Below are positions 5,938 through 27,958 of a DNA stretch of 64,000 bases, piece after piece; the stretch's first letter is position 1, and the number at the start of each line of letters is the position of its first letter. Source of the DNA: an uncultured Clostridia bacterium (GTDB lineage Bacteria > Bacillota > Clostridia > Oscillospirales > Acutalibacteraceae); contig CAMMVF010000014.1 in the NCBI GenBank assembly GCA_946500295.1, forward strand, positions 959 through 64,958. Direction: 5' to 3'. Below the pieces are notes generated by a model. That model made no database searches. It saw nothing but the letters and a program-made list of their open reading frames with translations, and was not told where the DNA came from. A program made the translations under genes and the position numbers.

Positions 5938-6020
5938 TGGTGCGGGCGACAGGACTTGAACCTGCACATCGGTTGACACTAGAACCTAATGGTGACGACA
6001 CCTTGGTGAAAAAATAATTT
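5938..6020. mobile_element. attL: tRNA-Leu 3' half (52 bp) joined to the element P' arm
   Basis: 5938-5989 is identical to 27767-27818 and ends in the anticodon loop; followed by tggtgacgacaccttggtgaaa, an imperfect inverted copy of the arm at 27902-27920. Confidence 0.85.
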
Positions 6021-6021
6021 A

Positions 6022-7374
6022 TTAATTCTTCGGGAACGGTATGGCATCATATTTCCCCCTGAAATATTCAGATATTATTTTTTTATCAAAACGGTCATCA
6101 AATTCATCAAGTGATCTAATAGTTGAAAACCCATTCTCATCTTTGTTTATAAAATTTATTTCATCTTTTCTAAGTAACTTCAAATCCATAAGCTGAGATT
6201 CATGCGTTGTTACAATCAATTGAATTTTTCTTTCTTTTGCTAATTCCAAAAATTCCTCGACAAATTTAATTGTTAGAAGAGGATGAAACATGCGATTTAT
6301 TTCATCAATAATATATACTTTGTTATCATCATTGTTAAGCAAGATTTCTATTATATCTAGTAATCTAACCGTACCATCTGATTCATCTTCTAGTGAAAAC
6401 TTTGCATTAGAGTTTTTATGTTTAAATTCCAGAGTTTTGTATTTAAACATACCTTCTTCGTTTAGACTAACAATAAACATGCTGTTTTCAGGTGATCTAA
6501 TTAACACAGCTGGTTTATGAGATTTTTCTCCTTCTTTGTTATTGTGCTTTTGTTCTGAAAGCATGTTATGAATATCTTTAATTATCTCTTTTGGTAAAGT
6601 TGAATTTACCTTTTCTGGCGCAATATTAGAAACAGTAATTTTTTCAATTCCAGTTGAAAAATGATTAAGCTTTTCAGCAATTACATCAAGGTTGTTGCTG
6701 TCAATCATCCAAGAATAATTTGTTATAGGTCTTTCGGGAAATGTTACTGTTAATTTAAAACGTATCCAATTATAAACATCTTTAAATACTGTGATTTTAC
6801 TGGGCGTTGCGTATAAATTATCTTTATTTTGATTCATTAATTTTAAAAACAAAATTGAATCATCACTTTTTATGTCATCGGCATAAATATTTATGCGATC
6901 CTTTAATGTATTTGTTTTTATATATGAACCTAAAGTGAATTTTTTATCGAGTATATTTCTAGAAAACACATAGTTTTTTTGTTCACTTTTAGTTTCTTCG
7001 TATAACCACTCTTTTTGTAATGAACTGTTGTTCAATATAACTTCAAATCCATAAACAAAAGTTTTTTTATTTGTTTCAATCTTAATTTCAAAAAAACTTG
7101 CTTTATCTTTGTTTTCTTCAACTAATTTGCAATAGTGCGGGTAGGAACCACTTTCAAAACCACTAAATACAATATCTTTAAAAAAAGAAAATGCATAAAC
7201 TAGATTGGATTTACCGGAAGCATTGGCTCCATAAATTGACATAAATTTTAAAAGTTTATATTTGCCATCTTTATATAACCTTTCTGAAAAATTACGTACT
7301 TTCCCCGCTTCCATGCTAAAGGTTTGAATTTCATTAAAAGATAGAAAATTACCAACTCTAAATTGGAGCAACAT
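6022..7374 (-). CDS. RloA/AAA_21-like ABC-type ATPase
   Basis: MLLQFRVGNFLSF start with GAGGTG RBS; Walker A GANASGKSN, signature ESDGT, Walker B IIDEINRMFHP; promoter TTGATA-17-TATAAT at 7421-7393. Confidence 0.8.
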   Translation of the reverse strand: MLLQFRVGNFLSFNEIQTFSMEAGKVRNFSERLYKDGKYKLLKFMSIYGANASGKSNLVYAFSFFKDIVFSGFESGSYPHYCKLVEENKDKASFFEIKIETNKKTFVYGFEVILNNSSLQKEWLYEETKSEQKNYVFSRNILDKKFTLGSYIKTNTLKDRINIYADDIKSDDSILFLKLMNQNKDNLYATPSKITVFKDVYNWIRFKLTVTFPERPITNYSWMIDSNNLDVIAEKLNHFSTGIEKITVSNIAPEKVNSTLPKEIIKDIHNMLSEQKHNNKEGEKSHKPAVLIRSPENSMFIVSLNEEGMFKYKTLEFKHKNSNAKFSLEDESDGTVRLLDIIEILLNNDDNKVYIIDEINRMFHPLLTIKFVEEFLELAKERKIQLIVTTHESQLMDLKLLRKDEINFINKDENGFSTIRSLDEFDDRFDKKIISEYFRGKYDAIPFPKN

Positions 7375-7514
7375 AAACTCACCTCTCGAATTATTATAAC
7401 TAAACCAACAGAAAATATCAAGAATTATTAAAGATTTGTCACTTTTAAAAGGCATATTTCGCAATATTAAGCGAACTAATATCAAATTAAAGAGAAATTT
7501 TCACTTTACCCCCC

Positions 7515-7574
7515 TTGACAATTTATGATATGTGGCTTATACTTGTTTTAGCACTTAACGATATCGAGTGCCAA
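7515..7574 (+). promoter_or_regulatory. Sigma-A promoter followed by CIRCE-like (HrcA) operator
   Basis: TTGACA 7515-7520, 17 bp, TATACT 7538-7543; TTAGCACTT-N9-GAGTGCCAA at 7548-7574 versus consensus TTAGCACTC-N9-GAGTGCTAA (2 mismatches). Confidence 0.75.
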
Positions 7575-7619
7575 TATGCATCCGGAGGCATATTGTCTAT
7601 AGAAAGGAGATAGTCAATC

Positions 7620-7739
7620 ATGGCCAAAACCAAGAGTAGCAAGACTGGTAAACAGGATAAAAAAATTGTCCCAGTCAAGCCTTATAAAAGGTCTGATGGA
7701 ACAACAGTTAAGGGGCACAGACGTTCAACCCCTAACTAA
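7620..7739 (+). CDS. 39-aa basic small protein (not in ORF track)
   Basis: GAAAGGAG RBS; MAKTKSSKTGKQDKKIVPVKPYKRSDGTTVKGHRRSTPN. Confidence 0.75.
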   Translation: MAKTKSSKTGKQDKKIVPVKPYKRSDGTTVKGHRRSTPN

Positions 7740-7837
7740 AATTTTCATAAGAAAGAATCAAAGTTAATGATGAACCTATGTACTCCTATTGTAGAACAAC
7801 TTTATGATACCACATTATCTTTGTAACTTCAACCGAC

Positions 7838-7874
7838 AAGTTTGTAACAATTTATAGGTTATTGTTACAAACTT
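7838..7874. promoter_or_regulatory. Perfect 14-bp inverted repeat before the yfbU RBS
   Basis: aagtttgtaacaat-N9-attgttacaaactt. Confidence 0.6.
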
Positions 7875-7887
7875 AAAAAGGAGTCAT

Positions 7888-8412
7888 ATGATAACAGATA
7901 CAGAAAAATTAATACTTTTTAATCAGTACGAGATTCTAAAATTTCTAAATCCAGATGAAACTGATTTCTACGAGCAGAATCAAAAAGTGCTTGAATACGG
8001 AAGTGAAAGTGATATTGAAGAATTGTCATCTTTTTTGATTGGAACATCAGAAGAAGTTAAAAAAGAAACTTTTGATATTTTACAAATGTTTCGAGATTTA
8101 GAAGATGCGTATGAAAAATTCTTTAATTCAACTTCTGAATATAAGTATAGTGCGAAATTTAGGGGATTTGATGGAAATGAAGAACCAGAATATTATTGTT
8201 ATTGCAAACATTTGATAATTGATGAAGATAGATATTCAGAATTTAAAGGCAGAGAACTAAATAGTCATTTTCCAGTGATAAACAGATATCGAAAAATGTT
8301 GAATTGTTACAATATCACAAATGAAAAACGAATCGGCAATTTCTATGAAAATCCAATGACTTTAAAAGAATTTGAATACATAATTCAAGGAGAAAGTACT
8401 GAAGAGCAGTAA
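7888..8412 (+). CDS. YfbU (UPF0304) family protein
   Basis: EKLILFNQYEIL, TFDILQMFRDL, FRGFDGNEE, LNSHFPVINRYRKML match the YfbU pattern; AAGGAG RBS. Confidence 0.7.
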   Translation: MITDTEKLILFNQYEILKFLNPDETDFYEQNQKVLEYGSESDIEELSSFLIGTSEEVKKETFDILQMFRDLEDAYEKFFNSTSEYKYSAKFRGFDGNEEPEYYCYCKHLIIDEDRYSEFKGRELNSHFPVINRYRKMLNCYNITNEKRIGNFYENPMTLKEFEYIIQGESTEEQ

Positions 8413-9498: not shown

Positions 9499-9525
9499 TA
9501 TTTATGTGTAATTGCTAATTATTTA

Positions 9526-12698: not shown

Positions 12699-13703
12699 TT
12701 AAACTAAGGTTTCTTTTATTCTTTTGGCTATTATATATGCCAAATCAACAGGAACTGCATTACCTATCATTTTATATCCGTAATCAACATCAGTATAAAT
12801 AAATTCAAAATCATCAGGAAATCCTTGAAGTCTTGCGCATTCTCTCACAGTAAGTCGGCGATACAAGTTCTCTTTCCCGGGAACGAATATTCTCTTGTTT
12901 TTTTCGACAAAAAGCATTTTAGGAGCTTGCGGATGTAGTTGACACTGCCTGCCGCTCGCCTGAACGGTAAATCCTTGCTCATCCCAGGAACGAACACGAT
13001 TACGACTCATAAAGATAGTTGAATAAGCCCCGACAAAAAACTCGTGATTGAGTATAGGTAATCGTCCGTTTGTTTTGTTTCTGGATAATGCAGGTATTGC
13101 AGAAGTGGCTAAATCACCAATGGCTTGTTTTAGTGTGGTTTTCTGATATCTGTATGGTGTGGTTTGTTCAGGAAATCTGAAATCAATATGCAAATCTTTC
13201 CTGAATCCAATATAAAACACTCTTTTTCTGTCTTGTGGGACACCATAATCAGCTGCATTCACAAGATTTATAGTTACATCATATCCACAAGATTCACATT
13301 GTGAAATAATGTTTTTCACAGCCTCAGAATGTCGATTAGCCAGCATACCGGAAACATTTTCAGCTAGGAAAAATTTAGGCTGTTTACTTTTTAAAATTCT
13401 GATATAGTCATAAAAAAGTTTTCCACGGTCATCGTTAATTCCTCTTAAAGCTCCGGCTTCGCTCCAGCTTTGGCACGGTGGTCCCCCGATAATACCGTCA
13501 ATATTGTCAGGAAAATCAGATTCTGTTATGCTCCTGATGTCTCCTTTAATTAGCTTTGCCTTATGATTCTTTTCATATGTTTCCCATATTCCCTTATCAA
13601 ATTCATTAGCAATAACTATTTCGTAACCAGCTTTTTCAAAACCTAAGTCTAATCCACCTGCACCGGAGAACAAACTAATCAATTTCAATATAATCATCTC
13701 CAT
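12699..13703 (-). CDS. C5-cytosine DNA methyltransferase, M.HaeIII-like (probably GGCC)
   Basis: FSGAGG, GGPPCQ, ENV, QDRKRVF; target-recognition region [31 protein letters not shown] closely matches M.HaeIII as recalled. Confidence 0.9.
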
Positions 13704-13745: not shown

Positions 13746-14636
13746 TTATTCAAAAACTATGCCATAATCTGTGATATTTGTTACATTAACATCCTCATCC
13801 GTATTAATGCCAAGTTTTTTAAGCACGGAAATAAGGTTTTCTGCTACAGCATTACCCTTGGTTATGAGAGGTTTATCAAAAACTAGATTGCAATCAAGCC
13901 TTCCGTCGGTTACAAACCAATCAACATATACCGATAAAGGTCTATCGCCATCCCACTTCCCTTTTGCTGATCTGTAATTTAATGCTTTGCAGGCAAAGTA
14001 AACTTGCGGATATTTATCTACATATTCCTCAATAGTATATAGATTGCTGAAAATATCTTCTGCAGATGAAATGTTATCATGAAATAAAACGCAATTAGCT
14101 ATACCTGAGTTTTCTATAATGTTTCCATTTACAAAAGCATTTTTCTTATCATCAGGAAGATTAGTGCCGGCATAAACATCAATAACTTGTTCGTGTGAAA
14201 GAGTTATTATATCTGAAAAATCTCCGTTCGATTTATTCAGTAGTTCAAACTTCCAACCTAATGTGAATGCACCTTTATCTGTTCGGCCACTTCTCTTTTT
14301 ATATATCAAGGGCTTATTTAAAAAAGCTGATTTTATTCTTAAAGTTGAACTTTCAATAATCTTTTTCCAGTTATCACCAAATAATAATTGCGCACGCTCA
14401 CTGTTCATTTTATTTTCAATGAAATCTGCATTCTCTTTTTTGTAGGAAATTTTAAATTCCTCAACACCATTTTCACATCTTGCTTTTACATAAATATCTG
14501 TTTTAGGTTCACCCTTGTAACAAGTAGGTTTTCCAGATTCAAGTACAGTATAAGGTGTGTTCTTATATGTAAAAGCTGTTCCTACGGAAAGTATTTCTTT
14601 GATTTTTCTTTCCTCTATTCCAAAACTTTTTGCCAT
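13746..14636 (-). CDS. Putative type II restriction endonuclease (PD-(D/E)xK)
   Basis: EPKTDIY...FKISYK motif; directly upstream of and co-oriented with the MTase. Confidence 0.7.
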   Translation of the reverse strand: MAKSFGIEERKIKEILSVGTAFTYKNTPYTVLESGKPTCYKGEPKTDIYVKARCENGVEEFKISYKKENADFIENKMNSERAQLLFGDNWKKIIESSTLRIKSAFLNKPLIYKKRSGRTDKGAFTLGWKFELLNKSNGDFSDIITLSHEQVIDVYAGTNLPDDKKNAFVNGNIIENSGIANCVLFHDNISSAEDIFSNLYTIEEYVDKYPQVYFACKALNYRSAKGKWDGDRPLSVYVDWFVTDGRLDCNLVFDKPLITKGNAVAENLISVLKKLGINTDEDVNVTNITDYGIVFE

Positions 14637-15124: not shown

Positions 15125-15937
15125 CTATTGCTGTAATTCCTCTTTCAATTGTTCCAAAATTTTCTTTAATCTCTTTTCCGCGCCTTCGGCTGTCAGACCG
15201 ACTCTTAATGATGCTTCACGGATTGTCATTTTATCCTTGCTTTTCAGACAGTCGGAGCAGATACCAAAGACTAACTCAATCAGCCTTAAATCCTGCGGAT
15301 TGAGTTTACTCAAAGCCGTTCTTAATTTATCTCTCTGTTCGTTTTTGAAATATATTTCCTCAGGGGACAATGTATCCATTTCAACATCAGTGATTGAAGA
15401 ATTGAAATAATTTTCATTATCTTGATTGTGAATATCAAGATTGTTGTTTTGCTTAAACCGAGTTGAAGTAATAATGCAGTTCAGTACTGTATTTTCTGAA
15501 ATATTCAGTTCCTTTGCAATGTCCGTGACTGCTTCTTCAAGAGGTTTGTCATTCGGTTGTTGCGAGTACAGCAATGATACTTTCCGTAAATTCTTATACT
15601 GATTATCATTATCAATATGTACGTTACCGCAGACAGTACGGACATATTCGTGCCACGCTTTGCGCACTTTATATTTTATGAGTTGCAGTAAAGGCATATC
15701 CGAATAGTAGCTTTGCAGTTCACTCCACAGCAGAGATGAAAAAATTTGTTTCAAGTCGTCAATTCTGTTACTATCCAAACCGTATTTCTTTATAAACAGT
15801 CGAGCGTTTCTGTTGAGTACAGGCTCATAAAGATAGAGAAATTCATTAAAGTATTTTTCGTTCCTTGTTTTTCTGTAGCGTATAAAATAATCATTCAAGT
15901 TATCAAGCTTAGTCGGGATATAACCAAGCGGATACAT
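15125..15937 (-). CDS. Sigma-70-family sigma-factor-like protein
   Basis: Region-2-like IDDLKQ, LSPEEIY..EQRDKLRTALSKL..LIELVFG..MTIREAS region-4 HTH. Confidence 0.7.
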   Translation of the reverse strand: MYPLGYIPTKLDNLNDYFIRYRKTRNEKYFNEFLYLYEPVLNRNARLFIKKYGLDSNRIDDLKQIFSSLLWSELQSYYSDMPLLQLIKYKVRKAWHEYVRTVCGNVHIDNDNQYKNLRKVSLLYSQQPNDKPLEEAVTDIAKELNISENTVLNCIITSTRFKQNNNLDIHNQDNENYFNSSITDVEMDTLSPEEIYFKNEQRDKLRTALSKLNPQDLRLIELVFGICSDCLKSKDKMTIREASLRVGLTAEGAEKRLKKILEQLKEELQQ

Positions 15938-15947
15938 TTTATTTTCC

Positions 15948-17096
15948 TTAATCTTTCATAGCCTCCTCATATATTTTTGAAAGCTCCATATCTTTCTCAT
16001 ATTGCTTTTCGGCATAGTCAAAATCAACATTAGCCAAATTAAAATAATAATCAATAAGCTCCTTTGCCTTGGCAGATACATTCGCACTGTATTTGCCGAG
16101 GCTTTTATTTTTGCGGATAGAATCGTAACGATTTTTCCATAGAACATAATACGGACTGTCGGATTTTCTTTGTTTTTTCATTTTCCTTTTTGTGACTTCC
16201 GGGTGCTTTGCAATGTACGAACAAGGCACACCGTATTTCTTATTTACCGTACTGCAATACAGTTGATTGCGTGCTGTTGTCATAAAGAAATATCTGTCGC
16301 AAATATCGCATCTCCAAAGATAGTGCCCGTGAATGTAGCCTTCAAATAAATCTGTCATAAGAAAGTCTTTCAGATTATTGTAATAAACCTTCCGATAAAT
16401 CTTACTTGTGCCGTTTTCAGACTCAACCACCGGAATTATTGTTGCTCTCGTGCCGAATGGGTGGCTGTTAACTTCAAATATAAAATTCATATACGGGTCG
16501 TTTATAAAATCGCTGAATGCTTCTGCAAGTTCAGTTTTTGTTCGAGCATTGTTTTTTACGATTTTATTTGTAATCTGAAACACGACTGATGAATAATATT
16601 CTACTTCCTTTACCGCTGATGAAATACAAAATCCGATTGAGAAAGCCGTTTCCAAATCAACAGACGCTTTGATTAACTCGTCTAATTTTTCTGAAATCTT
16701 TATTCTATATTCATTCTTTTTGAATCGGTTGTATTCTTCATAAAGCTTGATTTTTTCTTCTGCGAAAAGCTTATTTATTTCCTCTTTGCATTTCTTGATA
16801 TCAAATATTTTAAAAACTTCATATTGACTCAAAACATCAATAGCTGAAATTATTTTTGAATGGTAATCTAAAAAATCAGTCCTGTTAAAATCCTTATTTA
16901 ACAATTCTTCCGTAAAAATTCTTAAATCTTCAAAAATATTTTCATCAATAAATCGACTGTCGGTATCCATTACAAGGTAACTTGTATAACCAATAGGATA
17001 TTCTTTATCGCTGAGTGCAAACTTATCTTTTCTATATGTGACGCTAAAAAGATTAGTTGTATTCAGCTTTTTCAGTACATTGTCCTTTAAGTCCAT
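15948..17096 (-). CDS. DUF6076-like protein
   Basis: RCDICDRYF....RNQLYC....C Zn-like motif in the C-terminal third; typical IME neighbour. Confidence 0.6.
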   Translation of the reverse strand: MDLKDNVLKKLNTTNLFSVTYRKDKFALSDKEYPIGYTSYLVMDTDSRFIDENIFEDLRIFTEELLNKDFNRTDFLDYHSKIISAIDVLSQYEVFKIFDIKKCKEEINKLFAEEKIKLYEEYNRFKKNEYRIKISEKLDELIKASVDLETAFSIGFCISSAVKEVEYYSSVVFQITNKIVKNNARTKTELAEAFSDFINDPYMNFIFEVNSHPFGTRATIIPVVESENGTSKIYRKVYYNNLKDFLMTDLFEGYIHGHYLWRCDICDRYFFMTTARNQLYCSTVNKKYGVPCSYIAKHPEVTKRKMKKQRKSDSPYYVLWKNRYDSIRKNKSLGKYSANVSAKAKELIDYYFNLANVDFDYAEKQYEKDMELSKIYEEAMKD

Positions 17097-17257
17097 AGTA
17101 TCAACTCCGTTTATATTATATCACTTTGCAAATGAAATCACAAGTGTATAGGAAAGTAAATTGTGTTGTCACGTACTTTTACGGTTTTTTGAAAATTTTT
17201 GGCATTTATATATTGAGAGCAAAAAGCTTTCAATATTTTATGGAAGGAGTTGTTATA

Positions 17258-18340
17258 GTGAGTAACAACAAAAAGCTTACTGTCATTGACGGTGAAACAT
17301 TAATGGATATGCGAATTAATCCGATAAGCTTTTGCATCGACTCGTTGCTTCCGCAGGGTGTATCTCTGCTCTGCGGTGCTCCTAAGATAGGTAAGTCGTG
17401 GTTAGTACTTGACTGGTGTGTTCGCATAGCCAAAGGAGAGGAGGTGTGGAATTTTAAAACCGCGAAAGGAACTACCTTGTATCTTTGTCTTGAGGATACC
17501 CTGAGCAGAATTCAAGAAAGGCTGAATGAGATTACAGATGAAGTTCCGAGCAATGTATTCTTTGCAACATCATCGTGTTCGATGTCGGACGGACTCGCAG
17601 AACAGATTGAAAGTTTTATCGCAGAGCATAACGATACGGTTCTGGTTGTCATAGATACATTTCAAATGATACGCACCAGAAATAAAGATACTACTTACGC
17701 AAATGATTATCAGGAAATTGAGGAACTGAAAAGATTAGCGGAGAAGCTGAAAATTTCTCTTCTGCTTGTACATCATCTGCGAAAGCAGGGTGACAATGAT
17801 CCTCTGAATAAAATCTCAGGCACAACAGGAATCAGCGGTGCGGTTGATACAACATTTATTCTTGATAAAAGTAAACGCAGTCAGAACAGCGCAACAATGA
17901 TTTGCACGGGCAGGGATATTGAATACAGAGAGTTGGAACTGAGCTTTTCAAAAGACAATCATATATGGGATTTAGTTTCGGACAGTGTAGAAAGTCCTGA
18001 AATACTTTTGCCGGAAGAAATGAATTCGTTAATTGAATTTATGAAACAAAAGATTGTTTTCAAGGGGACAAACTCTGAGTTTACAGAAGAATTTAATTCT
18101 TTCTGCCGTAAGGAAATCTCTGCAAAAGCGTTAAAACAGATGATGAATAAATGGCGTTACGAATTAGAGAGTAATAACATTTACTTTAACTCATACAGAA
18201 GTAACGGAAAAAGGTTTGTAAATGTTCACTATCTGCCCGATAGTGACTCAAGTGCCGTAAGTGACGTAAATATTATTAGTGCCAATACTTGCGTTCCTTT
18301 CGTCACTTGCGACCCTGAAAAGCCGTGTCAGCCTACATGA
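17258..18340 (+). CDS. AAA_25 / RepA-like helicase
   Basis: GAPKIGKS Walker A, LYLCLED, VVIDT, VHHLRK, ISGT; GGAAGGAG RBS before GTG 17258. Confidence 0.85.
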   Translation: MSNNKKLTVIDGETLMDMRINPISFCIDSLLPQGVSLLCGAPKIGKSWLVLDWCVRIAKGEEVWNFKTAKGTTLYLCLEDTLSRIQERLNEITDEVPSNVFFATSSCSMSDGLAEQIESFIAEHNDTVLVVIDTFQMIRTRNKDTTYANDYQEIEELKRLAEKLKISLLLVHHLRKQGDNDPLNKISGTTGISGAVDTTFILDKSKRSQNSATMICTGRDIEYRELELSFSKDNHIWDLVSDSVESPEILLPEEMNSLIEFMKQKIVFKGTNSEFTEEFNSFCRKEISAKALKQMMNKWRYELESNNIYFNSYRSNGKRFVNVHYLPDSDSSAVSDVNIISANTCVPFVTCDPEKPCQPT

Positions 18341-18545: not shown

Positions 18546-18562
18546 CACGGAGGTGCATAAAA

Positions 18563-18874
18563 ATAGAAAATCGTAAGAGAAATCAAACTTTAAGTATCAG
18601 ATTAACTGATTCCGAAAAATCAGCAATCTATAAAATGTCAAAGAAAGCTCATCTGACATTGACTGAATATATTTTGAAATCTTCATTGCAAACCGAAATT
18701 AAAGTAGTTGATTTGCAACCGTTACTTGTTGAACTGAAAAGGATTGGCAATAACCTGAATCAGATAACAAGGAAGATAAACAGCGGTGCTTTTAGTTCCT
18801 ACAACTTTAGTGAAATGATTGCTATGCAAAGAAAAATTTATGATGCAATCATAAAACTCTCGGGGGAAAAGTAA
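18563..18874 (+). CDS. mobC: MobC relaxosome protein (probable ATA start)
   Basis: GGAGG RBS then ATA-GAA-AAT-CGT-AAG-AGA (ENRKRNQTLSIRLT); ELKRIGNNLNQI motif. Confidence 0.8.
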   Translation: MENRKRNQTLSIRLTDSEKSAIYKMSKKAHLTLTEYILKSSLQTEIKVVDLQPLLVELKRIGNNLNQITRKINSGAFSSYNFSEMIAMQRKIYDAIIKLSGEK

Positions 18875-20340
18875 TGGCGACCGTGACATATATCCGTGAG
18901 TCAAAACAATCAATAAGTGCGATGAAAGGTGTAATTGATTACTGTTGTCAGGATAAGAAAGTCTATGATGAGATTTCAAATCAAAGACTTGTCAGCGGAA
19001 TTAATTGTGACGGTGAAAATGCATTCAAAGAGTTTATGGCTACTAAAAAGTCATACGGTAAAAACGACGGTATGAATTTCTATCAGTATGTTCAATCCTT
19101 CTCACCTGAAGCAAATATTACTCCGCAGAAAGCTCATGAGGTTGCATTAGAGTTTGCCGAAAAAGCGTGGACAGGATATGAAGTTTTAGTTGCCACTCAT
19201 TGTGATGTACAGCATATTCATTCACACTTTGTAATCAACTCTGTTAGTTTTGAAAATGGTAAAAAGCTTCGTCAGAATCCAAACACGCTCAAATCGTTTC
19301 GAGCATTGAGTGATGAAATTTGTAGGCATCATAATCTTTCAACTCTTGTGCCTTACAACAAGGACTGTATGAAAATTTCAACAAGAGAATACCGCACGGC
19401 AGTAAAAGGTCAGAGTTGGAAATTTAAACTGATGAACGACATAGACAAAGCTATGAACATAAGCGGAAGCAAGGAAGATTTTATAAACGCAATGTCAATT
19501 ATGGGTTACTCGGTAACATGGACTGATGACAGGAAATACATCACCTATCAATGTCCTAACAAAATGAAGTGCAGAGATATTAAACTGCACAACGACAAAT
19601 ATTTGAAAGGAAGTATGGAAAATGAATTCAGATACAGGCAAGAACAATATTTTGGAAAGTCTCAAGCAGATGAACAGCAATTCATTGACAGCGATAGAAC
19701 TGCTCTCGGGAGAAACGAAAGTGATTTCGATTCCGTCACAGGTGAGAGAGGAAGAACTCACCCTGTTGAGAACGGCAATAACATTTCAGCCGGAACTGTA
19801 CAACATGATTTCAAAAATCTCAACGGACGACCAGATGGTGGACTATTTGGAAAGAATTCTGGAAATCAACAAAGACAATATGAAAACGATCTCACAGAAT
19901 TGTCTGACGGAGCTGAAGAAAGTTTCAGAACAGACGCTGAAAGAAATCAAGTCGGTGCAAACGCAGATGACGAAATCTATCGAACAGGCTGGGAAGATTC
20001 AAGAAGAAATTTTGAACAATACCTTGCAAAAAGGTCAGGAGTTGGAATCGGCAATAGCATCACAGGTGAAGAAGTCAACACTCCTGACAACTCTAAAATG
20101 GATAGCAATAACCATACTGTCCTCGGCTGTGTCAACTCTCTTGCTGAATCACTTTCTCGGATAGTAGATGATGAATCGGAGGATGAAGAAGAACGCAAAA
20201 AAAGAATTGCAGCCGAGCAAAACGGTAGTGATATTGGTACAGCAATAGGACTTGCTGTAGGTGTGCTTGCAGGTGCAATATCAAAAGAAGAAAATATTGA
20301 ATATGAAGATGAAGAATCAGAATTTAATATGAGCCTATAA
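18874..20340 (+). CDS. Relaxase/mobilization nuclease (MOBP-type)
   Basis: N-terminal ...DY.., QYVQSFSP, ATHCDVQHIHSHFVINSV HUH motif. Confidence 0.9.
   Translation: MATVTYIRESKQSISAMKGVIDYCCQDKKVYDEISNQRLVSGINCDGENAFKEFMATKKSYGKNDGMNFYQYVQSFSPEANITPQKAHEVALEFAEKAWTGYEVLVATHCDVQHIHSHFVINSVSFENGKKLRQNPNTLKSFRALSDEICRHHNLSTLVPYNKDCMKISTREYRTAVKGQSWKFKLMNDIDKAMNISGSKEDFINAMSIMGYSVTWTDDRKYITYQCPNKMKCRDIKLHNDKYLKGSMENEFRYRQEQYFGKSQADEQQFIDSDRTALGRNESDFDSVTGERGRTHPVENGNNISAGTVQHDFKNLNGRPDGGLFGKNSGNQQRQYENDLTELSDGAEESFRTDAERNQVGANADDEIYRTGWEDSRRNFEQYLAKRSGVGIGNSITGEEVNTPDNSKMDSNNHTVLGCVNSLAESLSRIVDDESEDEEERKKRIAAEQNGSDIGTAIGLAVGVLAGAISKEENIEYEDEESEFNMSL
19622..20164 (+). CDS. Overprinted ORF in the +1 frame of the relaxase; coiled coil plus C-terminal hydrophobic anchor (MobB-like)
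   Basis: 180 codons open, AAAGGAAG RBS 8 nt upstream, ends KWIAITILSSAVSTLLLNHFLG. Confidence 0.65.
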   Translation: MNSDTGKNNILESLKQMNSNSLTAIELLSGETKVISIPSQVREEELTLLRTAITFQPELYNMISKISTDDQMVDYLERILEINKDNMKTISQNCLTELKKVSEQTLKEIKSVQTQMTKSIEQAGKIQEEILNNTLQKGQELESAIASQVKKSTLLTTLKWIAITILSSAVSTLLLNHFLG

Positions 20341-20618: not shown

Positions 20619-20714
20619 TATCTGGATATTATAGAAAAGTTGTGATATGTTGTGGTTGCACCGAGGTGGTGTGACCACAACATTCATATGATAAAAACGG
20701 AGAGGAGAATGATT

Positions 20715-22322
20715 ATGAAGGTGTGGTTGTATTACAGACTGTCAAGAGATGAAGATGCTGAGCTCAATTCTCTTAACAATCAGCGTAACATTTTAGTAGA
20801 ATACGCAAACGCTAATAATCACGAAATCGTGGGCGAGTCCTTCGATGATAATGTAAGCGGTATGCACTTCAATCGTGAGGGTATCAGCAAAATCTATGAA
20901 CAGGTCGAGAATAAGGCAATTGAAGCAATCATTGTAAAAGACTTATCCCGACTAGGCAGACACAGAACACAGACTGCTATGTTCATAGATTATCTTCGTG
21001 AACACGATGTCAGAGTGCTTTCTGTTACAGAAAACATTGACACAAGCAATGAAGATGATGATCTGATGATTGGTTTCAAGGGAATTTTCAATGATATGTA
21101 CGCCCGTGATATTTCAAAGAAAATCCGTGCAGGCTACAAGCAGAAACAGAAAAACGGCATTGTGATTACAGTACCGCTTGGATATTTTAAGGATAAGAAT
21201 ACAAATGAAATTGTAGTTGTTGAGGAAGAAGCAGAGATTGTCAGAAAGATATTTGACCTCTACCTATCAGGCTACGGTTTAAAAGCAATAGCCAAAAAGC
21301 TGAATGATGAGGGCATAAAATCACCGCAGTATTATCAGAACAAAATGTATAACAAGAAACTTCCGAGTAACAAGCCTGAAATTACGGGTAGGTACTTATG
21401 GGTGAACACAACGGTAAAACGGATTTTGCAGAATGAGTTTTACATAGGAACCGTAACCTGTCACAAGACCTATACCAGTAAAATTAATCATATTAGGAAG
21501 GCTTTGCCCGAGGATGAACAATTTAAACACGAAAATTTTGCACCTGCCATTATCTCAAAGGAGAAATGGGAACAGGTGCAATTTTTATTATCTTCAAAGC
21601 ATAACAATAATGTCCGAGCAAGCTCAAGTAATCCTTGCCACCGCTACACAGGACTCATAGAATGCGGTGACTGCGGTTGCACATTCGTATGTAAAAAGCG
21701 TAAGTGGAAAGATAAACCCGAACGCATCGAATACAACTGCAACGGCTATCATCGCTATGGCAAGGAACATTGCACGGCACACAGGATTGATGAAGAATAT
21801 TTAGATAAGATGATTTATGACGAGCTTATGTCTATCAAAGATGAAGCACTTGCAAACTACAAATCAATAGAATCGGATGTCAAGAAATGGATGAGCAACA
21901 AGGGGACAGTTACTAATAAACTGAAACAGCTCAATACAAGCCTTGAACAGCGCAAATCTGACCAAAAAGAAATCCTGCTTGAGAGAATCAGGGATAGGGA
22001 ACACGCAGATATCTACACAGAAATGCTTGAAAAATGTGAATCGGATATTCAAAAGCTTGAGAATGAAATCAAGTCCATTCAGGATTACAACTCAACTATC
22101 AAAAAGCGCAAAGCTGAAATGAAAGACAGCGTTGAAATCATTGAAGAAATTATCAAGGAAGGAGCAATCAGTGACGCAAACCTCAGATTGCTTGTAGATA
22201 AAATAATAATCTTTGAAAAAGATAAAAAACTGAGTATCAAAATCAAGTTAAATGCAAAATTTCAACGACATAAGGATTGTTATAATGATAATGGAATAGT
22301 TTCAGAAAAGATATTCATATAA
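20715..22322 (+). CDS. Large serine recombinase (integrase)
   Basis: YYRLSRDED catalytic Ser, DDNVSG, KDLSRLGR, recombinase domain, CGDCG..YNC..HC Zn ribbon, coiled coil; GAGGAG RBS. Confidence 0.92.
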   Translation: MKVWLYYRLSRDEDAELNSLNNQRNILVEYANANNHEIVGESFDDNVSGMHFNREGISKIYEQVENKAIEAIIVKDLSRLGRHRTQTAMFIDYLREHDVRVLSVTENIDTSNEDDDLMIGFKGIFNDMYARDISKKIRAGYKQKQKNGIVITVPLGYFKDKNTNEIVVVEEEAEIVRKIFDLYLSGYGLKAIAKKLNDEGIKSPQYYQNKMYNKKLPSNKPEITGRYLWVNTTVKRILQNEFYIGTVTCHKTYTSKINHIRKALPEDEQFKHENFAPAIISKEKWEQVQFLLSSKHNNNVRASSSNPCHRYTGLIECGDCGCTFVCKKRKWKDKPERIEYNCNGYHRYGKEHCTAHRIDEEYLDKMIYDELMSIKDEALANYKSIESDVKKWMSNKGTVTNKLKQLNTSLEQRKSDQKEILLERIRDREHADIYTEMLEKCESDIQKLENEIKSIQDYNSTIKKRKAEMKDSVEIIEEIIKEGAISDANLRLLVDKIIIFEKDKKLSIKIKLNAKFQRHKDCYNDNGIVSEKIFI

Positions 22323-22382: not shown

Positions 22383-23084
22383 ATGATAAAAGTTGCATTT
22401 TGTGATGATGAAACTAAAATTTTAGAGGATTTATCTGTAAAGATAAAGAAAGAATTTGAAAAGATTAATTGTGAAATTGATTTATATACAACAGAAAACT
22501 CAATCGGGCTTCTTGAATATCTGAAAAGTTGTCCTGTTGATATTCTGTTTCTGGATATTGATATGCCGACAATCAGCGGTATGGATATTGCAGAAGCTCT
22601 GCTCAACAGCGAAATAAAAACACTCATTGTCTTTGTTACAGGTCAGGATGCCCTTGTGTATAAATCCTTTAAATATCATCCCTTCGGATTTATAAGAAAG
22701 ACATATTTTGATGAAGAAATTACGGGAGTTGTAAAAGGCTTGATTGAGGAAATACAAAAAAGCTCTGATACATTCTTCTTCAAAACTAACGATAGCTTTA
22801 ACAGAATCAAGCTTAAGGATATTCTGTATTTTGAATCCGAGTCAAATTATCTTAATCTGCATACTGCAAATACTGTTTACAAATTCAGAAGTACCCTTTC
22901 AGCAATTGAAAAAGAGCTTTCAGCAAAGGGTTTTATCCGCACTCATAAAGGATTTCTTGTGAATCAGGAGCATATCTTTTCAGTCAAATCCGAGAATATT
23001 GTTCTCAGCAGCAATGTCGTCCTACCAATCGGCAGAACAAACAGAGATGTAATAAAAGCTCGCATTATGAGGTATATGAGATGA
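22383..23084 (+). CDS. LytTR-family response regulator
   Basis: FCDDE, FLDIDMP..SG, VFVT, HPFGFIRK, FIRTHKGFLVN. Confidence 0.9.
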   Translation: MIKVAFCDDETKILEDLSVKIKKEFEKINCEIDLYTTENSIGLLEYLKSCPVDILFLDIDMPTISGMDIAEALLNSEIKTLIVFVTGQDALVYKSFKYHPFGFIRKTYFDEEITGVVKGLIEEIQKSSDTFFFKTNDSFNRIKLKDILYFESESNYLNLHTANTVYKFRSTLSAIEKELSAKGFIRTHKGFLVNQEHIFSVKSENIVLSSNVVLPIGRTNRDVIKARIMRYMR

Positions 23085-23806
23085 TCGGAAAATATAAAAA
23101 GCTCAAGCAGGATTTTGAAAATCTTGAAAAGGAATATTCAAGAGAGGTTGCAAAAAATCTCGACTTGCAATACGAATACGACAACCTGAAAGCTGATTAT
23201 ACAAACGAATCGACTCAGCGTGCGGAAATTGAGAGGCTTCACGAAAACACACGAAGGCTCAAGCACGATATGAAAAATCATATTATGGTGGCTGTATCCT
23301 ATCTTAACAACGGAGAGATTGAACAGGCTAAGAATTATCTTTCAGATGTGCTTGATAATCTGAACAAAACCTATTCCTACATTCAGACCGGTAATTCTGT
23401 TATGAATTATATTATCAATTCAAAGCTTGAAAAAGCACATAGCAAGGGAATTGGATTTAAGGCAGAAATAGAAAATCTCCCCTTTGAAAAAATGGGAAGT
23501 GTTGATTTTTCTGCATTGCTTTCAAATATACTTGATAATGCCGTTGAGGCAAGTGAAAAGACAACAGATAAGTTTATCTGTGTTGCGATTCTCAAAAAGC
23601 GTGCTTATGATACAATCCTCGTAAAAAACAAGATTGATAACTCCGTGCTTGAAACAAATCCCGAGCTTAAATCAAGTAAAAATAATACAGAACAACACGG
23701 CTACGGTATAAAGCAGATAAAGACAATAGCCGAAAAATATGATGGTATAGTTGACATTTATGAAGAGGACAATATGTTCTGCGTGAATGTGATGATACCT
23801 AGCTGA
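23081..23806 (+). CDS. GHKL histidine kinase (AgrC-like) lacking a membrane sensor domain
   Basis: HDMKNH, NILDNAVEA, HGYGIKQIK; no hydrophobic segment. Confidence 0.85.
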   Translation: MIGKYKKLKQDFENLEKEYSREVAKNLDLQYEYDNLKADYTNESTQRAEIERLHENTRRLKHDMKNHIMVAVSYLNNGEIEQAKNYLSDVLDNLNKTYSYIQTGNSVMNYIINSKLEKAHSKGIGFKAEIENLPFEKMGSVDFSALLSNILDNAVEASEKTTDKFICVAILKKRAYDTILVKNKIDNSVLETNPELKSSKNNTEQHGYGIKQIKTIAEKYDGIVDIYEEDNMFCVNVMIPS

Positions 23807-23809
23807 ATC

Positions 23810-23840
23810 AGACTGTTTCAAATGAAGCAGTCTTTTTTAT
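23810..23840 (+). terminator. Rho-independent terminator
   Basis: agactgtttc-aaat-gaagcagtct plus T-tract. Confidence 0.6.
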
Positions 23841-24008
23841 TTAACAGGAAACTGCGTATAAGTAAGCTGTCAGGAAAAACAAAAAAGCCAATTCCTTTTT
23901 CAAAATTTGTGTCAAGGCTCTTGCTTTTTGTCACAGTTCAGAAGCAGTTTATCCCAAATGGATTGTAAATTATCAAGTATATGTTTATTATTAATTCAGG
24001 TGAAGAAA

Positions 24009-24965
24009 ATGATTATAGCCAAAAACTTAAGCAAGGAATTTCACAATAACATCAAAGTGGTGAATAATCTTTCGTTTCATATTAACAAGGGTGAAACAGT
24101 CGGGCTAATAGGCGCAAACGGTGCAGGCAAAACAACACTTATAAAGCTTATTTCAGGCTTGTTAATACCCGACAGTGGCTTTGTCAGAATTTTTGAGGAT
24201 AACCCGCTTGCAAGGAAAGCTAAAAACGGGCCGTTTATGGGTGTAGTGTCAGGTCAGAGGCCCTCAGGAACCTATGATAACGGCAAGGGTGCAAACACCG
24301 CGACCTTGCAGGAGGATTTAACGGTTGAACTGAATATGGAGCTTGTAAAGGCAATTTACAGAATTCCCGATGACAGATATAATAAAAAGCTTTCTAAGCT
24401 TACAGACGCTCTTAGATTAAACTCTTTTATGAAATACCGTGTTGACCAGCTTTCATTAGGTCAGCGTATGCGTGCAGAAATAGCTGTTGTACTGCTTTAT
24501 GAGCCTGAACTTCTTATACTTGACGAACCGTTTATCGGGGTTGACCTGATAGCCAAGGAATCAATAAGGCAAATTCTTCAAAAAATGTCCAAGGATAAGA
24601 ACACCACAATAATTCTTACCACACACAATGTAGAAGAAATTGAGAAAATCTGTGAAAGGGTAATCTTAATAGACAAAGGCAGTATGGTTTTTAACGGAAG
24701 CTTTGACCGTATAAAGTATTCTCACGCAAGTATCAATTCATTAAGTGCCGAGCTTACGGATAAAATTCCCGATATGCAAGATTTGCCTGTGACTAAATAC
24801 ACGATTGAAAATAAAAAAATTACCCTTTGGTACGACAGTAAGGTTATCAGCACCAAAGATCTAACCGCATACATTTTATCGCAGTGCAAGGTTAAGGATT
24901 TGCTGATAAGAAAACCTACTGTTGAAGAAATTATCAGAAATATATATGAGGAGGACTCAGAGTGA
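24009..24965 (+). CDS. ABC transporter ATP-binding protein
   Basis: GANGAGKT, LSLGQ, LILDEP. Confidence 0.9.
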   Translation: MIIAKNLSKEFHNNIKVVNNLSFHINKGETVGLIGANGAGKTTLIKLISGLLIPDSGFVRIFEDNPLARKAKNGPFMGVVSGQRPSGTYDNGKGANTATLQEDLTVELNMELVKAIYRIPDDRYNKKLSKLTDALRLNSFMKYRVDQLSLGQRMRAEIAVVLLYEPELLILDEPFIGVDLIAKESIRQILQKMSKDKNTTIILTTHNVEEIEKICERVILIDKGSMVFNGSFDRIKYSHASINSLSAELTDKIPDMQDLPVTKYTIENKKITLWYDSKVISTKDLTAYILSQCKVKDLLIRKPTVEEIIRNIYEEDSE

Positions 24966-25963
24966 GTAAAACTATAATTGATGTACAGAACATAAGCAAA
25001 ACCTTCAAAATCACAAAGAGAAAAACAGGATTTAAAGGTGCGTTAGCAAACATATTTCATCCTGAGCACGAATACAAGAAAGCTGTAAACGACATCAACT
25101 TTAATATAAAAGAGGGTGAGATGGTAGGCTTTATCGGACCTAACGGAGCCGGAAAGTCAACTACCGTCAAAATGCTTTCAGGTATTCTGTATCCTGACAG
25201 CGGAAATATTAATATCGCAGGATATATTCCCCACAAACAGCGTAAGGAATATGTTGCCAATATCGGTGTAATGTTCGGTCAGAAATCGCAGATTTCATGG
25301 GATTTATCACCGCTTGACAGCTACGAGGTTATCAAGCATATCTATAAAATTCCCGATAAGAAATATAAAGAAAATATTGAACGCTTTACAGAGCTTCTTG
25401 ATATGCAGAAATTCATCAATCAGCCTGTTCGCCAACTATCATTAGGTCAGCGAATGAGGGCAGATATTGCGGCGGCGCTTCTTCACTCGCCTAAAATAGT
25501 TTTCTTTGATGAGCCCACAATCGGAATTGATGTTGTGGGTAAGGAAAAAATCCGCAGTTTTATAAAAACTCTTAATAAGACTGATAACATCACTATGATT
25601 TTTACAACTCACGATATGCAGGATATTGAAAAGACCTGTGAGCGCCTGATAATTATTGATGACGGAAAAAAGCTATATGACGGAAGCTTTGACGCTATAA
25701 AAAGCAATTATGTTTCATCACGAATTATAGAAGCAGAGTTTGAACAGCTGCCTGAAAAAATTGATATTCCGTATGTTACTGTCAGTGATGTTGATAAAAA
25801 CAGAATGAAAAAGGTCATCACATTTGATACCAGCAAAACAAGCATAAATTCGTTGATGAGTACCCTGCTCAACAATTACAGCATCAAGGATATTTCAGTA
25901 AAAGAGCCTGAAATTGATGCGATAATCAGTGATATTTATCAGGGCAAAATCATTGTACATTGA
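24962..25963 (+). CDS. ABC transporter ATP-binding protein
   Basis: GPNGAGKS, LSLGQ, FFDEPT. Confidence 0.9.
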   Translation: MSKTIIDVQNISKTFKITKRKTGFKGALANIFHPEHEYKKAVNDINFNIKEGEMVGFIGPNGAGKSTTVKMLSGILYPDSGNINIAGYIPHKQRKEYVANIGVMFGQKSQISWDLSPLDSYEVIKHIYKIPDKKYKENIERFTELLDMQKFINQPVRQLSLGQRMRADIAAALLHSPKIVFFDEPTIGIDVVGKEKIRSFIKTLNKTDNITMIFTTHDMQDIEKTCERLIIIDDGKKLYDGSFDAIKSNYVSSRIIEAEFEQLPEKIDIPYVTVSDVDKNRMKKVITFDTSKTSINSLMSTLLNNYSIKDISVKEPEIDAIISDIYQGKIIVH

Positions 25964-25978
25964 GTACGGAGGTGCAAA

Positions 25979-26767
25979 ATGAGTACTTACATACAATTTG
26001 CCGCCATTAAATTCAGGAATAATATGGCTTACCGTTTTGAGTACATAATGGGGATTCTGAATACTGTTCTGAATTTTTTGGTGTATTGGTGTATATACAA
26101 GGCTTTGTATGGCGGAGCAAATGAGATTGACGGAATTACCTTTTCAATGGTAACTACAAACTTTATAATTTCGCTCGGTTTGACAAATGCTTTTTCAAAA
26201 AATGAAATGTTTTTACAGGATAAAATCAAACAGGGAACAATAGCAAACGAGCTTCTTAAGCCTGTGAATTTTAAATTCAGAATGCTGTTTGAGGATTTGG
26301 GTGACGGCTTTTTTAAAGTGGTTTTCAATTTTCTGCCTGCTGTGATAATTGCAATGCTTTTTACTGAAATGATGCCGCCTGCCAGAATTTTTGGCTTTGT
26401 TCTCTGCCTCGTCAGTGCAGTGCTGGGATATATTGTATTGTGGTATATAAGCTTTATAGTTCAGACCTTGGCTTTCTGGCTGTTTAATGTCTGGGGATTG
26501 ATTACAATAAAAAATGTAATAGTAAATATTTTCTCGGGTGCTTTACTTCCGCTTTGGTTTATGCCACAACCTGTTCTGAATATTATTAAGTTCACACCGT
26601 TTGATTCTATTTACTTCACACCTGTTCAGCTGTATCTCGGACAACTGCAGGGTTATGAAATACTGTTGAATTTTGGTAGGCAGGTTTTGTGGATAGCAAT
26701 ACTTTATTTTATCGGCGAGCTTTTGTGGAATAAAGGAATCAAAAGACTTATAGTGCAGGGAGGATAA
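25979..26767 (+). CDS. ABC-2 family permease
   Basis: Multiple TM segments, GTIANELLKP, FSGALLPLWFMP. Confidence 0.85.
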   Translation: MSTYIQFAAIKFRNNMAYRFEYIMGILNTVLNFLVYWCIYKALYGGANEIDGITFSMVTTNFIISLGLTNAFSKNEMFLQDKIKQGTIANELLKPVNFKFRMLFEDLGDGFFKVVFNFLPAVIIAMLFTEMMPPARIFGFVLCLVSAVLGYIVLWYISFIVQTLAFWLFNVWGLITIKNVIVNIFSGALLPLWFMPQPVLNIIKFTPFDSIYFTPVQLYLGQLQGYEILLNFGRQVLWIAILYFIGELLWNKGIKRLIVQGG

Positions 26768-26770
26768 GTT

Positions 26771-27577
26771 ATGAAAGATATAGTTTCTCTGTTTTTTGCT
26801 TATGCAAAATCAGGTATAAAAACACGCTTTCAATATAAGCTTGACTCCGTAGTTTCGTCTTTTGCCGTGTTTTTCAGAGAAGCGGCAGGAATTATTGCAA
26901 TGTATTTTGCTTTGCTTAAATTTGATACAATCAATAACTGGAATATCAACGAGCTTATGTTTCTGTTCAGCCTGATTTTTATTACATATGGAATTTTTAT
27001 TGTCTTTTTTATGGCTTTGCGGGACTTTTCCGACTGGATAAAGCACGGTGATATAGACAGAGTAATGGTAAGACCTCGTGGAATACTCACTCAACTTGTG
27101 CTGTGCGGTGCAGACTGGCTTGCAGCACTCGGTCACGGAACATTGGGCATTACACTTTTTATTTTGTCAGCCAATAATGTGGGTGTGGAATGGAACGCTG
27201 CGACTATTCTGTACTATGTTATTTCAATTGCAAGCGGTGTCCTTATACAAGGTGCAGTTTTTCTGTTTTTCTCAGCAATCAGCATTTATTTTATAGAAAC
27301 ACAGAGCTTAAAAGAAATTATGTACTGGAATCTGAGAAAATTTGCCGGTTATCCGATTAGCATTTATAATAAGTTCATACAGTCACTGCTGATATTTGTA
27401 GTGCCGTTTGCATTTGTGAATTACTTTCCGGCACAGTTCTTGCTGCGCAAGCCTGATATGTCGACGTATCCCGAATGGTTTATGTATATTTCACCGTTTG
27501 TAGGAATCATACTTTATATCATCGCTTACTTTTTCTGGAAGTTCAGTATGAGGTATTATAAAAGTACCGGTAATTAA
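26771..27577 (+). CDS. ABC-2 family permease
   Basis: GDIDRVMVRP, FAGYPISIY, VVPFAFVNYFP. Confidence 0.85.
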   Translation: MKDIVSLFFAYAKSGIKTRFQYKLDSVVSSFAVFFREAAGIIAMYFALLKFDTINNWNINELMFLFSLIFITYGIFIVFFMALRDFSDWIKHGDIDRVMVRPRGILTQLVLCGADWLAALGHGTLGITLFILSANNVGVEWNAATILYYVISIASGVLIQGAVFLFFSAISIYFIETQSLKEIMYWNLRKFAGYPISIYNKFIQSLLIFVVPFAFVNYFPAQFLLRKPDMSTYPEWFMYISPFVGIILYIIAYFFWKFSMRYYKSTGN

Positions 27578-27598
27578 GGTTTATTGCAAAATATAAAA

Positions 27599-27711
27599 TG
27601 GCAGACGCATAACATTAGTAAGTTTCAATTTAGCGATTATAGCTAAATTGAAGTGTGATGATTTGTACAATATAAACGACAAAATCATCACCTTATGTTA
27701 TGCGTCTGCCA
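27599..27711. other. 113-bp three-way-junction inverted-repeat structure
   Basis: 17-bp outer stem 27599-27615/27695-27711; inner hairpins 27624-27652 (11 bp) and 27655-27691 (10 bp). Confidence 0.75.
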
Positions 27712-27734
27712 ACTTAATTTTTGCTCAAAAACAA

Positions 27735-27762
27735 GAAAAAGCCCGATTAAATCGAGCTTTTC
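27735..27762 (-). terminator. Terminator downstream of tRNA-Leu
   Basis: aagcccgat-taa-atcgagctt hairpin with a minus-strand T-tract. Confidence 0.65.
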
Positions 27763-27766
27763 AGGG

Positions 27767-27851
27767 TGGTGCGGGCGACAGGACTTGAACCTGCACATCG
27801 GTTGACACTAGAACCTAAATCTAGCGCGTCTGCCAATTCCGCCACGCCCGC
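27767..27851 (-). tRNA. trnL: tRNA-Leu(TAG), intact, CCA encoded
   Basis: GCGGGCGTGGCGGAATTGGCAGACGCGCTAGATTTAGGTTCTAG...GGTTCAAGTCCTGTCGCCCGCACCA; anticodon TAG, long variable arm. Confidence 0.97.
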
Positions 27852-27895
27852 ACGTGTGTATTTCAACAAGTTAACCTTGCGAAAATCAAAATATT

Positions 27896-27958
27896 AAATT
27901 GTTTCACCGAGGTAGCGTGACCTAAATCTAGCGCGTCTGCCAATTCCGCCACGCCCGC
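27896..27958. mobile_element. attR: element P arm joined to the tRNA-Leu 5' half
   Basis: 27920-27958 is identical to 27813-27851; preceded by aaattgtttcaccgaggtagcgtg. Confidence 0.85.

Follow-up and report, generated by a model that had tools for sequence, protein, structure and literature searches.

A mobilizable island with a serine integrase that very likely splits a single-copy tRNA-Leu(UAG) gene and brings its replacement

The DNA analysed here (the window) is a stretch of 64,000 nt from an uncultured Clostridia bacterium (Oscillospirales; Acutalibacteraceae), corresponding to positions 959–64,958 of contig CAMMVF010000014.1 in assembly GCA_946500295.1, forward strand. It contains a 21.9-kb island that encodes a large serine recombinase (LSR) and is bordered by the two halves of a gene for tRNA-Leu with the anticodon TAG (UAG in the tRNA). 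From sequence comparisons, we consider it very likely that this island splits the genome's sole tRNA-Leu(UAG) gene, supplies a full spare copy, and that the spare is then re-used as a landing site. Three lines of evidence are laid out below: the structure of the junctions, the distribution of related LSR loci, and the layers of older insertions upstream of the gene.

The split tRNA gene, its spare copy and the attachment sites

The single tRNA called by ARAGORN in the window is the tRNA-Leu(TAG) near the right end of the island (Table 1), which scores 55.8 bits with Rfam; nothing else within 5–30 kb was called as a tRNA, the halves included. When the window's own genome was searched with this gene, its nucleotides 34–85 were found at the left border and its nucleotides 1–39 at the right border, both at 100% identity. 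An earlier note on this DNA had described two tRNA halves overlapping only in ACCTAA, and this is borne out: ACCTAA is their sole overlap, and joining 5938–5989 to 27926–27958 gives a sequence that agrees with the intact copy at 85 of 85 bases. The note had also placed an intact tRNA inside the element, 44 bp from the P arm (the element's right-hand arm); the placement stands and the distance is corrected to 45–50 bp, depending on the arm start chosen. Counted to the first base of the ACCTAA core, the spare lies 68 bp inside the P-arm end of the island and points the same way as the broken gene. The P arm and the left-hand P′ arm are unrelated to the tRNA sequence apart from ACCTAA. Outside the island, the resident TTGACA-17-TATAAT promoter that had been proposed is indeed a perfect match at 28019–27991 on the minus strand, and the putative terminator of the split gene at the far left resembles the flank of the unsplit tRNA gene of a sister species (G003), which consists of 'aaataagaac' followed by a hairpin.

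Joining the two element arms rebuilds an element attachment site (attP) with an inverted repeat of 15/19 positions, centred between the two A's of ACCTAA, which are tRNA positions 33–34. This score was reached by 2 of 2000 shuffles, and the two hybrid junctions (attL and attR) and the chromosomal site (attB) score only 9–11/19 by the same dyad scoring, in agreement with the symmetric, AA-centred attP put forward earlier. Relatives keep the P′ arm as TGGTRACGACACCTTGGTG, and the DNA beyond the arm differs. Junctions of the attL type, with TGGTRACGACACCTTGGTG leading into unrelated interior DNA, are present in five other genomes; in one of these (L047, L095), attL, LSR gene, tRNA and attR lie on one contig, ~14.9 kb from end to end. 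For an element whose tRNA carries the anticodon CAG, in genome G433, both junctions are seen: CACTAGAACCTGA joined to TGGTAACGTCACCTCGGTGG on one side, and GTGTCACTGAAGTGACACG joined to ACCTGA on the other. Here the dyad is centred on GA, which takes the tRNA position of AA in the island.

We propose that the LSR joined the dyad attP to an attB consisting of the anticodon stem-loop of the tRNA-Leu(UAG) gene, with the crossover probably at AA, corresponding to U33–U34 of the tRNA. Because attP and attB share only 6 bp, neither junction rebuilds the tRNA gene. A classical tyrosine-type model, in which a fragment borne on attP restores the gene, was considered and rejected, as it would leave one fragment rather than two halves and a whole gene. 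After integration, the spare would sit downstream of the resident promoter and of the dead 5′ half, and would most likely be transcribed by read-through and trimmed by RNase P.

The genome has five leucine tRNA species with one gene each, and its sole intact tRNA-Leu(TAG) is the one in the island. The CUA codon, though rare, is used 1157 times in 541 long open reading frames (ORFs), or 3.5 per 1000 codons, the histidyl-tRNA synthetase gene being among its users. The earlier claim that the cargo copy complements the broken gene is thus supported by the gene inventory and codon usage. We regard read-through from the resident promoter as the probable, though by no means secure, mode of expression: a promoter scan found no consensus promoter in the 68-bp spacer between the spare and the 5′ half, with which read-through fits, and a terminator scan placed a terminator directly after the spare, at 27762–27736. 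Since precise excision by the LSR would rebuild the gene, the element would not be strictly addictive. Decay of the element would nevertheless have to keep the spare tRNA, and the remnants described below are consistent with this.

That the repeated tRNA pieces arose in assembly or binning has a negligible chance of being right. The window's own genome (G000) is a draft of 45 contigs, albeit 99.8% complete, and the earlier note had itself raised the concern of an assembly artefact. The junctions, however, are unique sequence on one contig of 69 kb, and dozens of genomes assembled independently show the three-piece layout again, one case being a 998-kb scaffold from an isolate.

The recombinase and a family of loci linked to tRNA-Leu

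The island LSR comprises 535 aa and is the only recombinase detected in the island. It matches PF00239 (E 1.3e-28), PF07508 (E 6.1e-28) and PF13408 (E 9.3e-13), and carries its catalytic Ser10 in the motif YYRLSRDE. The open frame begins at GTG 20652, and the start at ATG 20715 given in the earlier note is retained, as it yields the usual N-terminus, MKVWLYYRLS. Relatives in the PDB are TnpX, SprA and the TP901-1 integrase, the full-length match to SprA (9dxh) covering residues 81–520.

Screening LSR homologues for a linked tRNA copy, as the earlier note had suggested, was done by scanning one genome per species and yielded 52 loci. They belong to Clostridia of gut and rumen that bear the labels Acutalibacteraceae, Ruminococcus, Eubacterium sp. 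or Oscillospiraceae. At 33 of the 52, an intact tRNA-Leu lies downstream of the LSR gene on the opposite strand, so that the two are convergent, the smallest distance from LSR stop to tRNA being 72 bp. The linked tRNA has the anticodon TAG at 10 of these 33 loci, which include LSRs 86–97% identical to that of the island, and CAG at the other 23, where the LSRs are ~60–75% identical; the link therefore persists down to ~60% LSR identity. Just beyond the intact tRNA, 24 of the 33 linked loci carry one to three scars, each consisting of a P arm and a tRNA 5′ half, and L050, whose tRNA is masked, has scars in addition to these 24. The 5′ half of a scar is always cut at the same loop position, and the arm follows the consensus cacYRaggtRRcgtK. 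Scars at TAG loci have ACCTAA as their core and those at CAG loci have ACCTGA, although in a few scars one or two of these bases are mutated.

The LSR tree sets the CAG-linked LSRs apart from the TAG-linked LSRs, as a clade with support of 98/85. LSR lineage, attP centre, and the anticodon of both cargo and target therefore covary, which is the strongest argument that the LSR makes the junctions and that the cargo tRNA is maintained. Together with the lack of any other detected recombinase in the island and the linkage at 33 of 52 loci, this supports the earlier claim that the LSR breaks the tRNA gene. We infer that target choice is set by the crossover dinucleotide, which includes the wobble base, such that an AA clade would target UAG and a GA clade CAG.

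The covariation bears on two rival explanations. According to the first, the insertion is real and the spare tRNA accidental, captured once by imprecise excision or recombination and neither needed nor under selection, the broken tRNA being tolerated. The identity of the spare (100%) to both the split gene and the native gene of the sister species G003 would fit such a recent, local capture, yet the LSR–tRNA link is kept to ~60% LSR identity and in both isoacceptors, with cargo anticodon and scar core in agreement at linked loci. In G433, moreover, the cargo tRNA and the split host gene have different variable-arm sequences, so that the cargo tRNA was brought in rather than copied locally. Given also that the genome uses CUA codons and has no other tRNA-Leu(TAG), we consider accidental capture very unlikely. 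According to the second, which we judge highly improbable, the LSR served resolution or inversion, and these junctions were made by another enzyme, acting in trans or since lost. The island LSR gene is set back 5.4 kb from the right end and is not at the end, and for four island ORFs no family was matched at curated thresholds. In relatives, however, the LSR stop codon is 72–230 bp from the tRNA/att end, and the 5.4-kb gap of the island is an inserted ABC-transporter cargo block, absent from L043 and L045–L048. Dyad symmetry in attP, a centre of 2 nt and a shared core of only 6 bp make up the pattern of an LSR and not of a tyrosine integrase, the LSR clades track the target isoacceptor, and a Pfam scan of the island ORFs found neither a tyrosine recombinase nor a DDE transposase.

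Several further observations concern the LSR and its relatives. Upstream of the LSR start codon, at window positions 20648–20690, a P-arm-like sequence, TTGCACCGAGGTGGTGTGACC, with 16/19 matches to the P arm, lies in the loop of an 8-bp hairpin; apart from the true arms, the genome has no other match of this kind, and the sequence is identical in the TAG-group relatives examined. CAG-group relatives have another motif at this place (cacgcgYctgccgag), which resembles a tRNA D-arm. The P-arm-like site may be an operator bound by the LSR. A second serine-recombinase-like gene, ~30% identical to the island LSR, lies in the window outside the island (61434–62516, minus strand). Distant LSRs (~28–30% identical) are convergent with tRNA-Leu(CAG) in the same geometry at G003:C27:4980-6829 and G006:C1:114408-116277. 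At L022:1337-2899 (genome G005, tRNA-Leu(CAG)), the order is 5′ half and P arm, spacer, intact tRNA, a stretch of ~1.25 kb that lacks any convincing ORF, and finally P′ arm and 3′ half; this miniature could be a non-autonomous derivative moved in trans. Shorter tRNA 5′ fragments, with 16–22 matching nucleotides and a break in the D-arm region, occur at L057:2278, L061:4079, L071:2015 and L091:8680, with a common junction in L061 and L071 (ccgcagg followed by cag(c/t)gctc). These may represent a second kind of element or event.

Older insertions and re-use of the landing site

The gene that was split here already belonged to element-derived DNA. In G002, the tRNA-Leu(TAG) locus consists of a promoter, 5′ half, P arm, FMN-reductase gene, promoter and intact tRNA; window positions 27959–28911 have this same arrangement, but with the tRNA split by the present element. 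In G004, the order is rpiB, promoter, 5′ half, P arm, a 456-bp spacer and the intact tRNA, and the sequence of window positions 28912–29085 is found, in G004 and L048, between the intact tRNA and the scar. The decayed scar at 28850 and the G004-type spacer beyond it thus point to at least two older layers upstream. In G003, which has no LSR of the island family, an unsplit and scar-free tRNA lies directly downstream of rpiB. Judged from these comparisons, the 5′ half and the promoter of the gene split here are not native and came with the 5′ flank of an earlier element. As the split gene was already within element-derived DNA, spare tRNAs serve as new landing sites.

Serial scars in relatives fit this interpretation. 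Three serial scars are present in each of L050 and L079, and four, each with P arm and 5′ half, lie upstream of one intact tRNA-Leu(CAG) in G004 (L026:1708-2244). The 68-bp spacer of the window is shared by L041, L046 and L047, and the scar of L047 is flanked by the same spacer type as the window's spare tRNA. The earlier claim that the cargo copy renews attB is accordingly upheld by the decayed scar in the window and by relatives with up to three or four serial scars, some of them with an element-type spacer.

We envision the following sequence of events. The spare provides a fresh attB, into which later members of the family insert. Element bodies would be lost by recombination between repeated tRNA pieces, such as the 52-nt 3′ repeats, or alternatively by LSR-mediated excision between the attL of one element and the attR of another. 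Loss of a body would leave a P arm and a 5′ half each time, and hence a stack of scars upstream of a working gene. Recombination between the 39-nt 5′ repeats would instead delete attR and fix the element in place, which would explain G005, G006, L043 and L044, where a tRNA with an element-type 3′ flank has no scar.

A number of results weigh against this interpretation. The locus is not at the genus-typical site beside rpiB, its left flank being a degraded prophage, and no genome has both flanks around an unsplit tRNA: G001 and G002 match the right side only, and a left-flank search of relatives for the empty site matched only prophage genes on other contigs. The predicted empty site, searched as an exact pattern (left terminator flank, gap, right promoter flank), had 0 matches in metagenome contigs, and a degenerate attP-junction pattern matched neither metagenome contigs nor IMG/VR viral contigs. 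Nor was a recombination directionality factor identified. Among the 52 LSR-homologue loci, 19 have no tRNA, most of them being short contigs, and four (L051, L066, L069 and L081) lack one despite 10 kb of downstream sequence. Lastly, a weak promoter may lie within the 68-bp spacer, and read-through is therefore not proven.

The surroundings of the locus show some further features. The degraded prophage directly left of the 3′ half (1674–5782) retains a terminase large subunit, Fic, an N-terminal portal fragment and a capsid gene, the portal fragment apparently being joined to the capsid gene; the two segments that match it are separated by an additional ~2.2 kb of DNA in G003 and G005. In the window's own genome, rpiB is at C11:18060–18494, followed by unrelated DNA with no tRNA remnant, so that the tRNA locus has either moved or lost its native site. 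A tRNA-sequence-dependent attR pattern matched in 3 of 401 family genomes, a count that is no measure of spread because the pattern is built on the tRNA sequence of this genus.

Gene content and relation to known systems

The GC content falls from ~43–47% to 28–39% between 6 kb and 29 kb of the window. With its own LSR, MobC and relaxase and no conjugation pore, the island is, as far as gene content can tell, an integrative mobilizable element (IME) with a serine integrase: no VirB4 and no VirD4/coupling protein were found among the scanned island ORFs of at least 79 aa, no oriT was located, and a Pfam scan found no phage structural genes within 5990–27919. It has no nucleotide match among PLSDB plasmids, and the LSRs in a phage collection are at most ~31% identical to its LSR; it is therefore not a known plasmid or phage. 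Conserved among close relatives are a core at ~14.5–22.3 kb, within which the block at 15125–17096 is 90–95% identical in L040 and L043, and the hairpin–terminator–tRNA block at 27592–27852. The left 8 kb of the island are variable among close relatives, of which only L040 and L041 have the cargo block at 22383–27577. An ORF of 296 aa at 13746–14636 adjoins the C5 methylase and has no family match; that it encodes the partner nuclease of the methylase is a guess. The hairpin module at 27599–27711 has a 17-bp outer stem and contains gcgtctgcc, as in the tRNA D-arm. With the terminator and the spare tRNA, it travels as one conserved block in L043 and L045–L048, which lack the ABC cargo, and the module and terminator are also found beside the tRNA in G005, where the outer stem differs and G-U pairs are still possible.

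Table 1. Features of the island and its borders (window coordinates)
Feature	Position	Strand	Basis
Putative terminator of the split gene (hairpin and T-run 3′ of the tRNA)	5905–5937	−	By-eye reading
3′ half of tRNA-Leu(TAG), nt 34–85; B-side of attL	5938–5989	−	100% match
Body of the 21.9-kb integrative mobilizable element	5990–27919		GC trough, gene content, att junctions
P′ arm of the element (TGGTGACGACACCTTGGTGAAA), element side of attL	5990–6011		Occurs once in genome
AAA_21/AbiEii-like ATPase, cargo	6022–7485	−	PF13304, E 1.4e-28
YfbU-domain protein, cargo	7888–8412	+	PF03887
C5 cytosine DNA methylase	12699–13703	−	PF00145, E 4.9e-105
Sigma-70 region-4 protein and DUF6076 protein, conserved core	15125–17096	−	Pfam
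AAA_25 (RepA/DnaB-like) ATPase	17126–18340	+	PF13481
MobC/NikA-like accessory protein	18635–18874	+	PF05713
MobA/VirD2-type relaxase	18874–20340	+	PF03432
Large serine recombinase	20715–22322	+	Pfam Resolvase, Recombinase, Zn_ribbon_recom
Cargo: LytTR response regulator, GHKL kinase, two ABC ATPases, two ABC-2 permeases	22383–27577	+	Pfam
Conserved block 3′ of the spare tRNA: hairpin module (27599–27711) and terminator (27762–27736)	27592–27766	−	Terminator scan, relatives
Spare intact tRNA-Leu(TAG)	27767–27851	−	ARAGORN, Rfam, genome search
68-bp spacer; outer part is the P arm (aattgtttcaccgaggtagcgtg, 27897–27919)	27852–27919		Sequence
5′ half of split tRNA-Leu(TAG), nt 1–39; B′-side of attR	27920–27958	−	100% match
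Shared core ACCTAA; probable crossover AA at 27924–27925	27920–27925		Sequence, dyad scoring
Resident promoter TTGACA-17-TATAAT, 12/12 matches	27991–28019	−	32 nt upstream of the 5′ half
FMN-reductase gene, right end of an older element (between its P arm and its tRNA)	28042–28758	−	PF03358
Older, decayed attR scar: P arm with 1 mismatch in 29, tRNA 5′ half at 88% identity	28850–28911	−	Genome search
Remnant of the tRNA-upstream spacer of a still older element	28912–29085		Same sequence in G004, L048

The closest functional parallel is tRNA-dependent lysogeny, shown experimentally for actinobacteriophages with tyrosine integrases (Fionnbharth/K4, Cluster L and Gaia; Guerrero-Bustamante & Hatfull, mBio 2024, PMC10865867). 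As in those phages, attB lies in a tRNA gene and the shared core (6 bp in the island) is too short to rebuild the tRNA. Unlike the island, which is a non-phage element with an LSR and a dyad attP, the phages described there are temperate, with lambda-like tyrosine integrases and arm-type sites, and the part of the study consulted reports nothing like a spare tRNA beside attP that is re-used as attB and gives rise to scar arrays. The island thus works as tRNA-dependent lysogeny does, yet is no member of that class, lacking both the tyrosine integrase and the phage features.

In enzyme architecture, the island resembles LSR elements that split host genes, such as SPbeta (SprA/spsM), A118 (comK), Tn4451 (TnpX) and the serine-recombinase IMEs in rumA, and it shares with them the insertion inside a gene, the almost complete lack of att identity and a 2-bp crossover (PMC5704250). 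Serine-recombinase IMEs, however, are described as disrupting genes the host can do without, whereas the target here is a single-copy tRNA gene replaced by cargo (IME review, PMC5704250). The 2014 Islander database paper states that integrases of the serine family are not known to target tRNA genes (PMC4383910). With the tyrosine islands of that database, the island has in common the sublocation in the anticodon loop and the flanking tRNA fragments (PMC4383910). In the Islander class, the tRNA fragment of attP restores the gene at one junction and one fragment is displaced; the island, in contrast, displaces both halves and supplies a separate, whole gene. The ssrA islands of Dehalococcoides, with two recombinases, DsiA and the CcrB-like serine recombinase DsiB (McMurdie et al. 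2011, PMC3146451), are similar in having a serine-family recombinase and a site at a small stable-RNA gene. They differ in that their target is the tmRNA gene (ssrA), that they are bounded by ssrA direct repeats, and that the accessible part of the report mentions no replacement gene (PMC3146451).

Full-text searches turned up no published account of a serine integrase acting on a tRNA gene or supplying a substitute for it. By the comparisons above, disrupt-and-complement integration would here be the work of a serine integrase on a mobilizable island, with the spare tRNA as the next landing site. This would run counter to the stated rules that serine integrases are not known to target tRNA genes (PMC4383910) and that serine-recombinase IMEs reside in dispensable genes (PMC5704250), and would extend "disrupt and complement", shown in 2024 for tyrosine-integrase phages only, to another family of recombinases and to elements other than phages. 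The LSR, tRNA and attP form a compact module that could serve as an integration tool for gut anaerobes that are hard to engineer. Many Clostridia have its attB in conserved form, and a single dinucleotide apparently specifies it.

A broader and more tentative proposal, towards which we lean less than away, is that the LSR family treats the anticodon stem-loop as a portable pad, with retargeting through the wobble base, turnover and relocation of tRNA genes, an ordered record of scars and non-autonomous riders. If so, changing a single base of attP and pairing it with a cargo tRNA to match would retarget an element between leucine isoacceptors, and the elements would drive horizontal turnover, even relocation, of an essential tRNA gene. 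The ordered stacks of attR scars would then record past insertions, small cargo segments such as the FMN-reductase gene would become fixed beside the tRNA, and the same enzyme may act in trans on ORF-less miniature copies (G005, L022) and move them.

For the organisms concerned, the implication is that a family of elements in gut and rumen Clostridia would break an essential single-copy tRNA gene and compensate with a spare. This would account for the orphan tRNA 5′ halves found upstream of tRNA-Leu genes, and suggests a route by which tRNA genes may be replaced horizontally.

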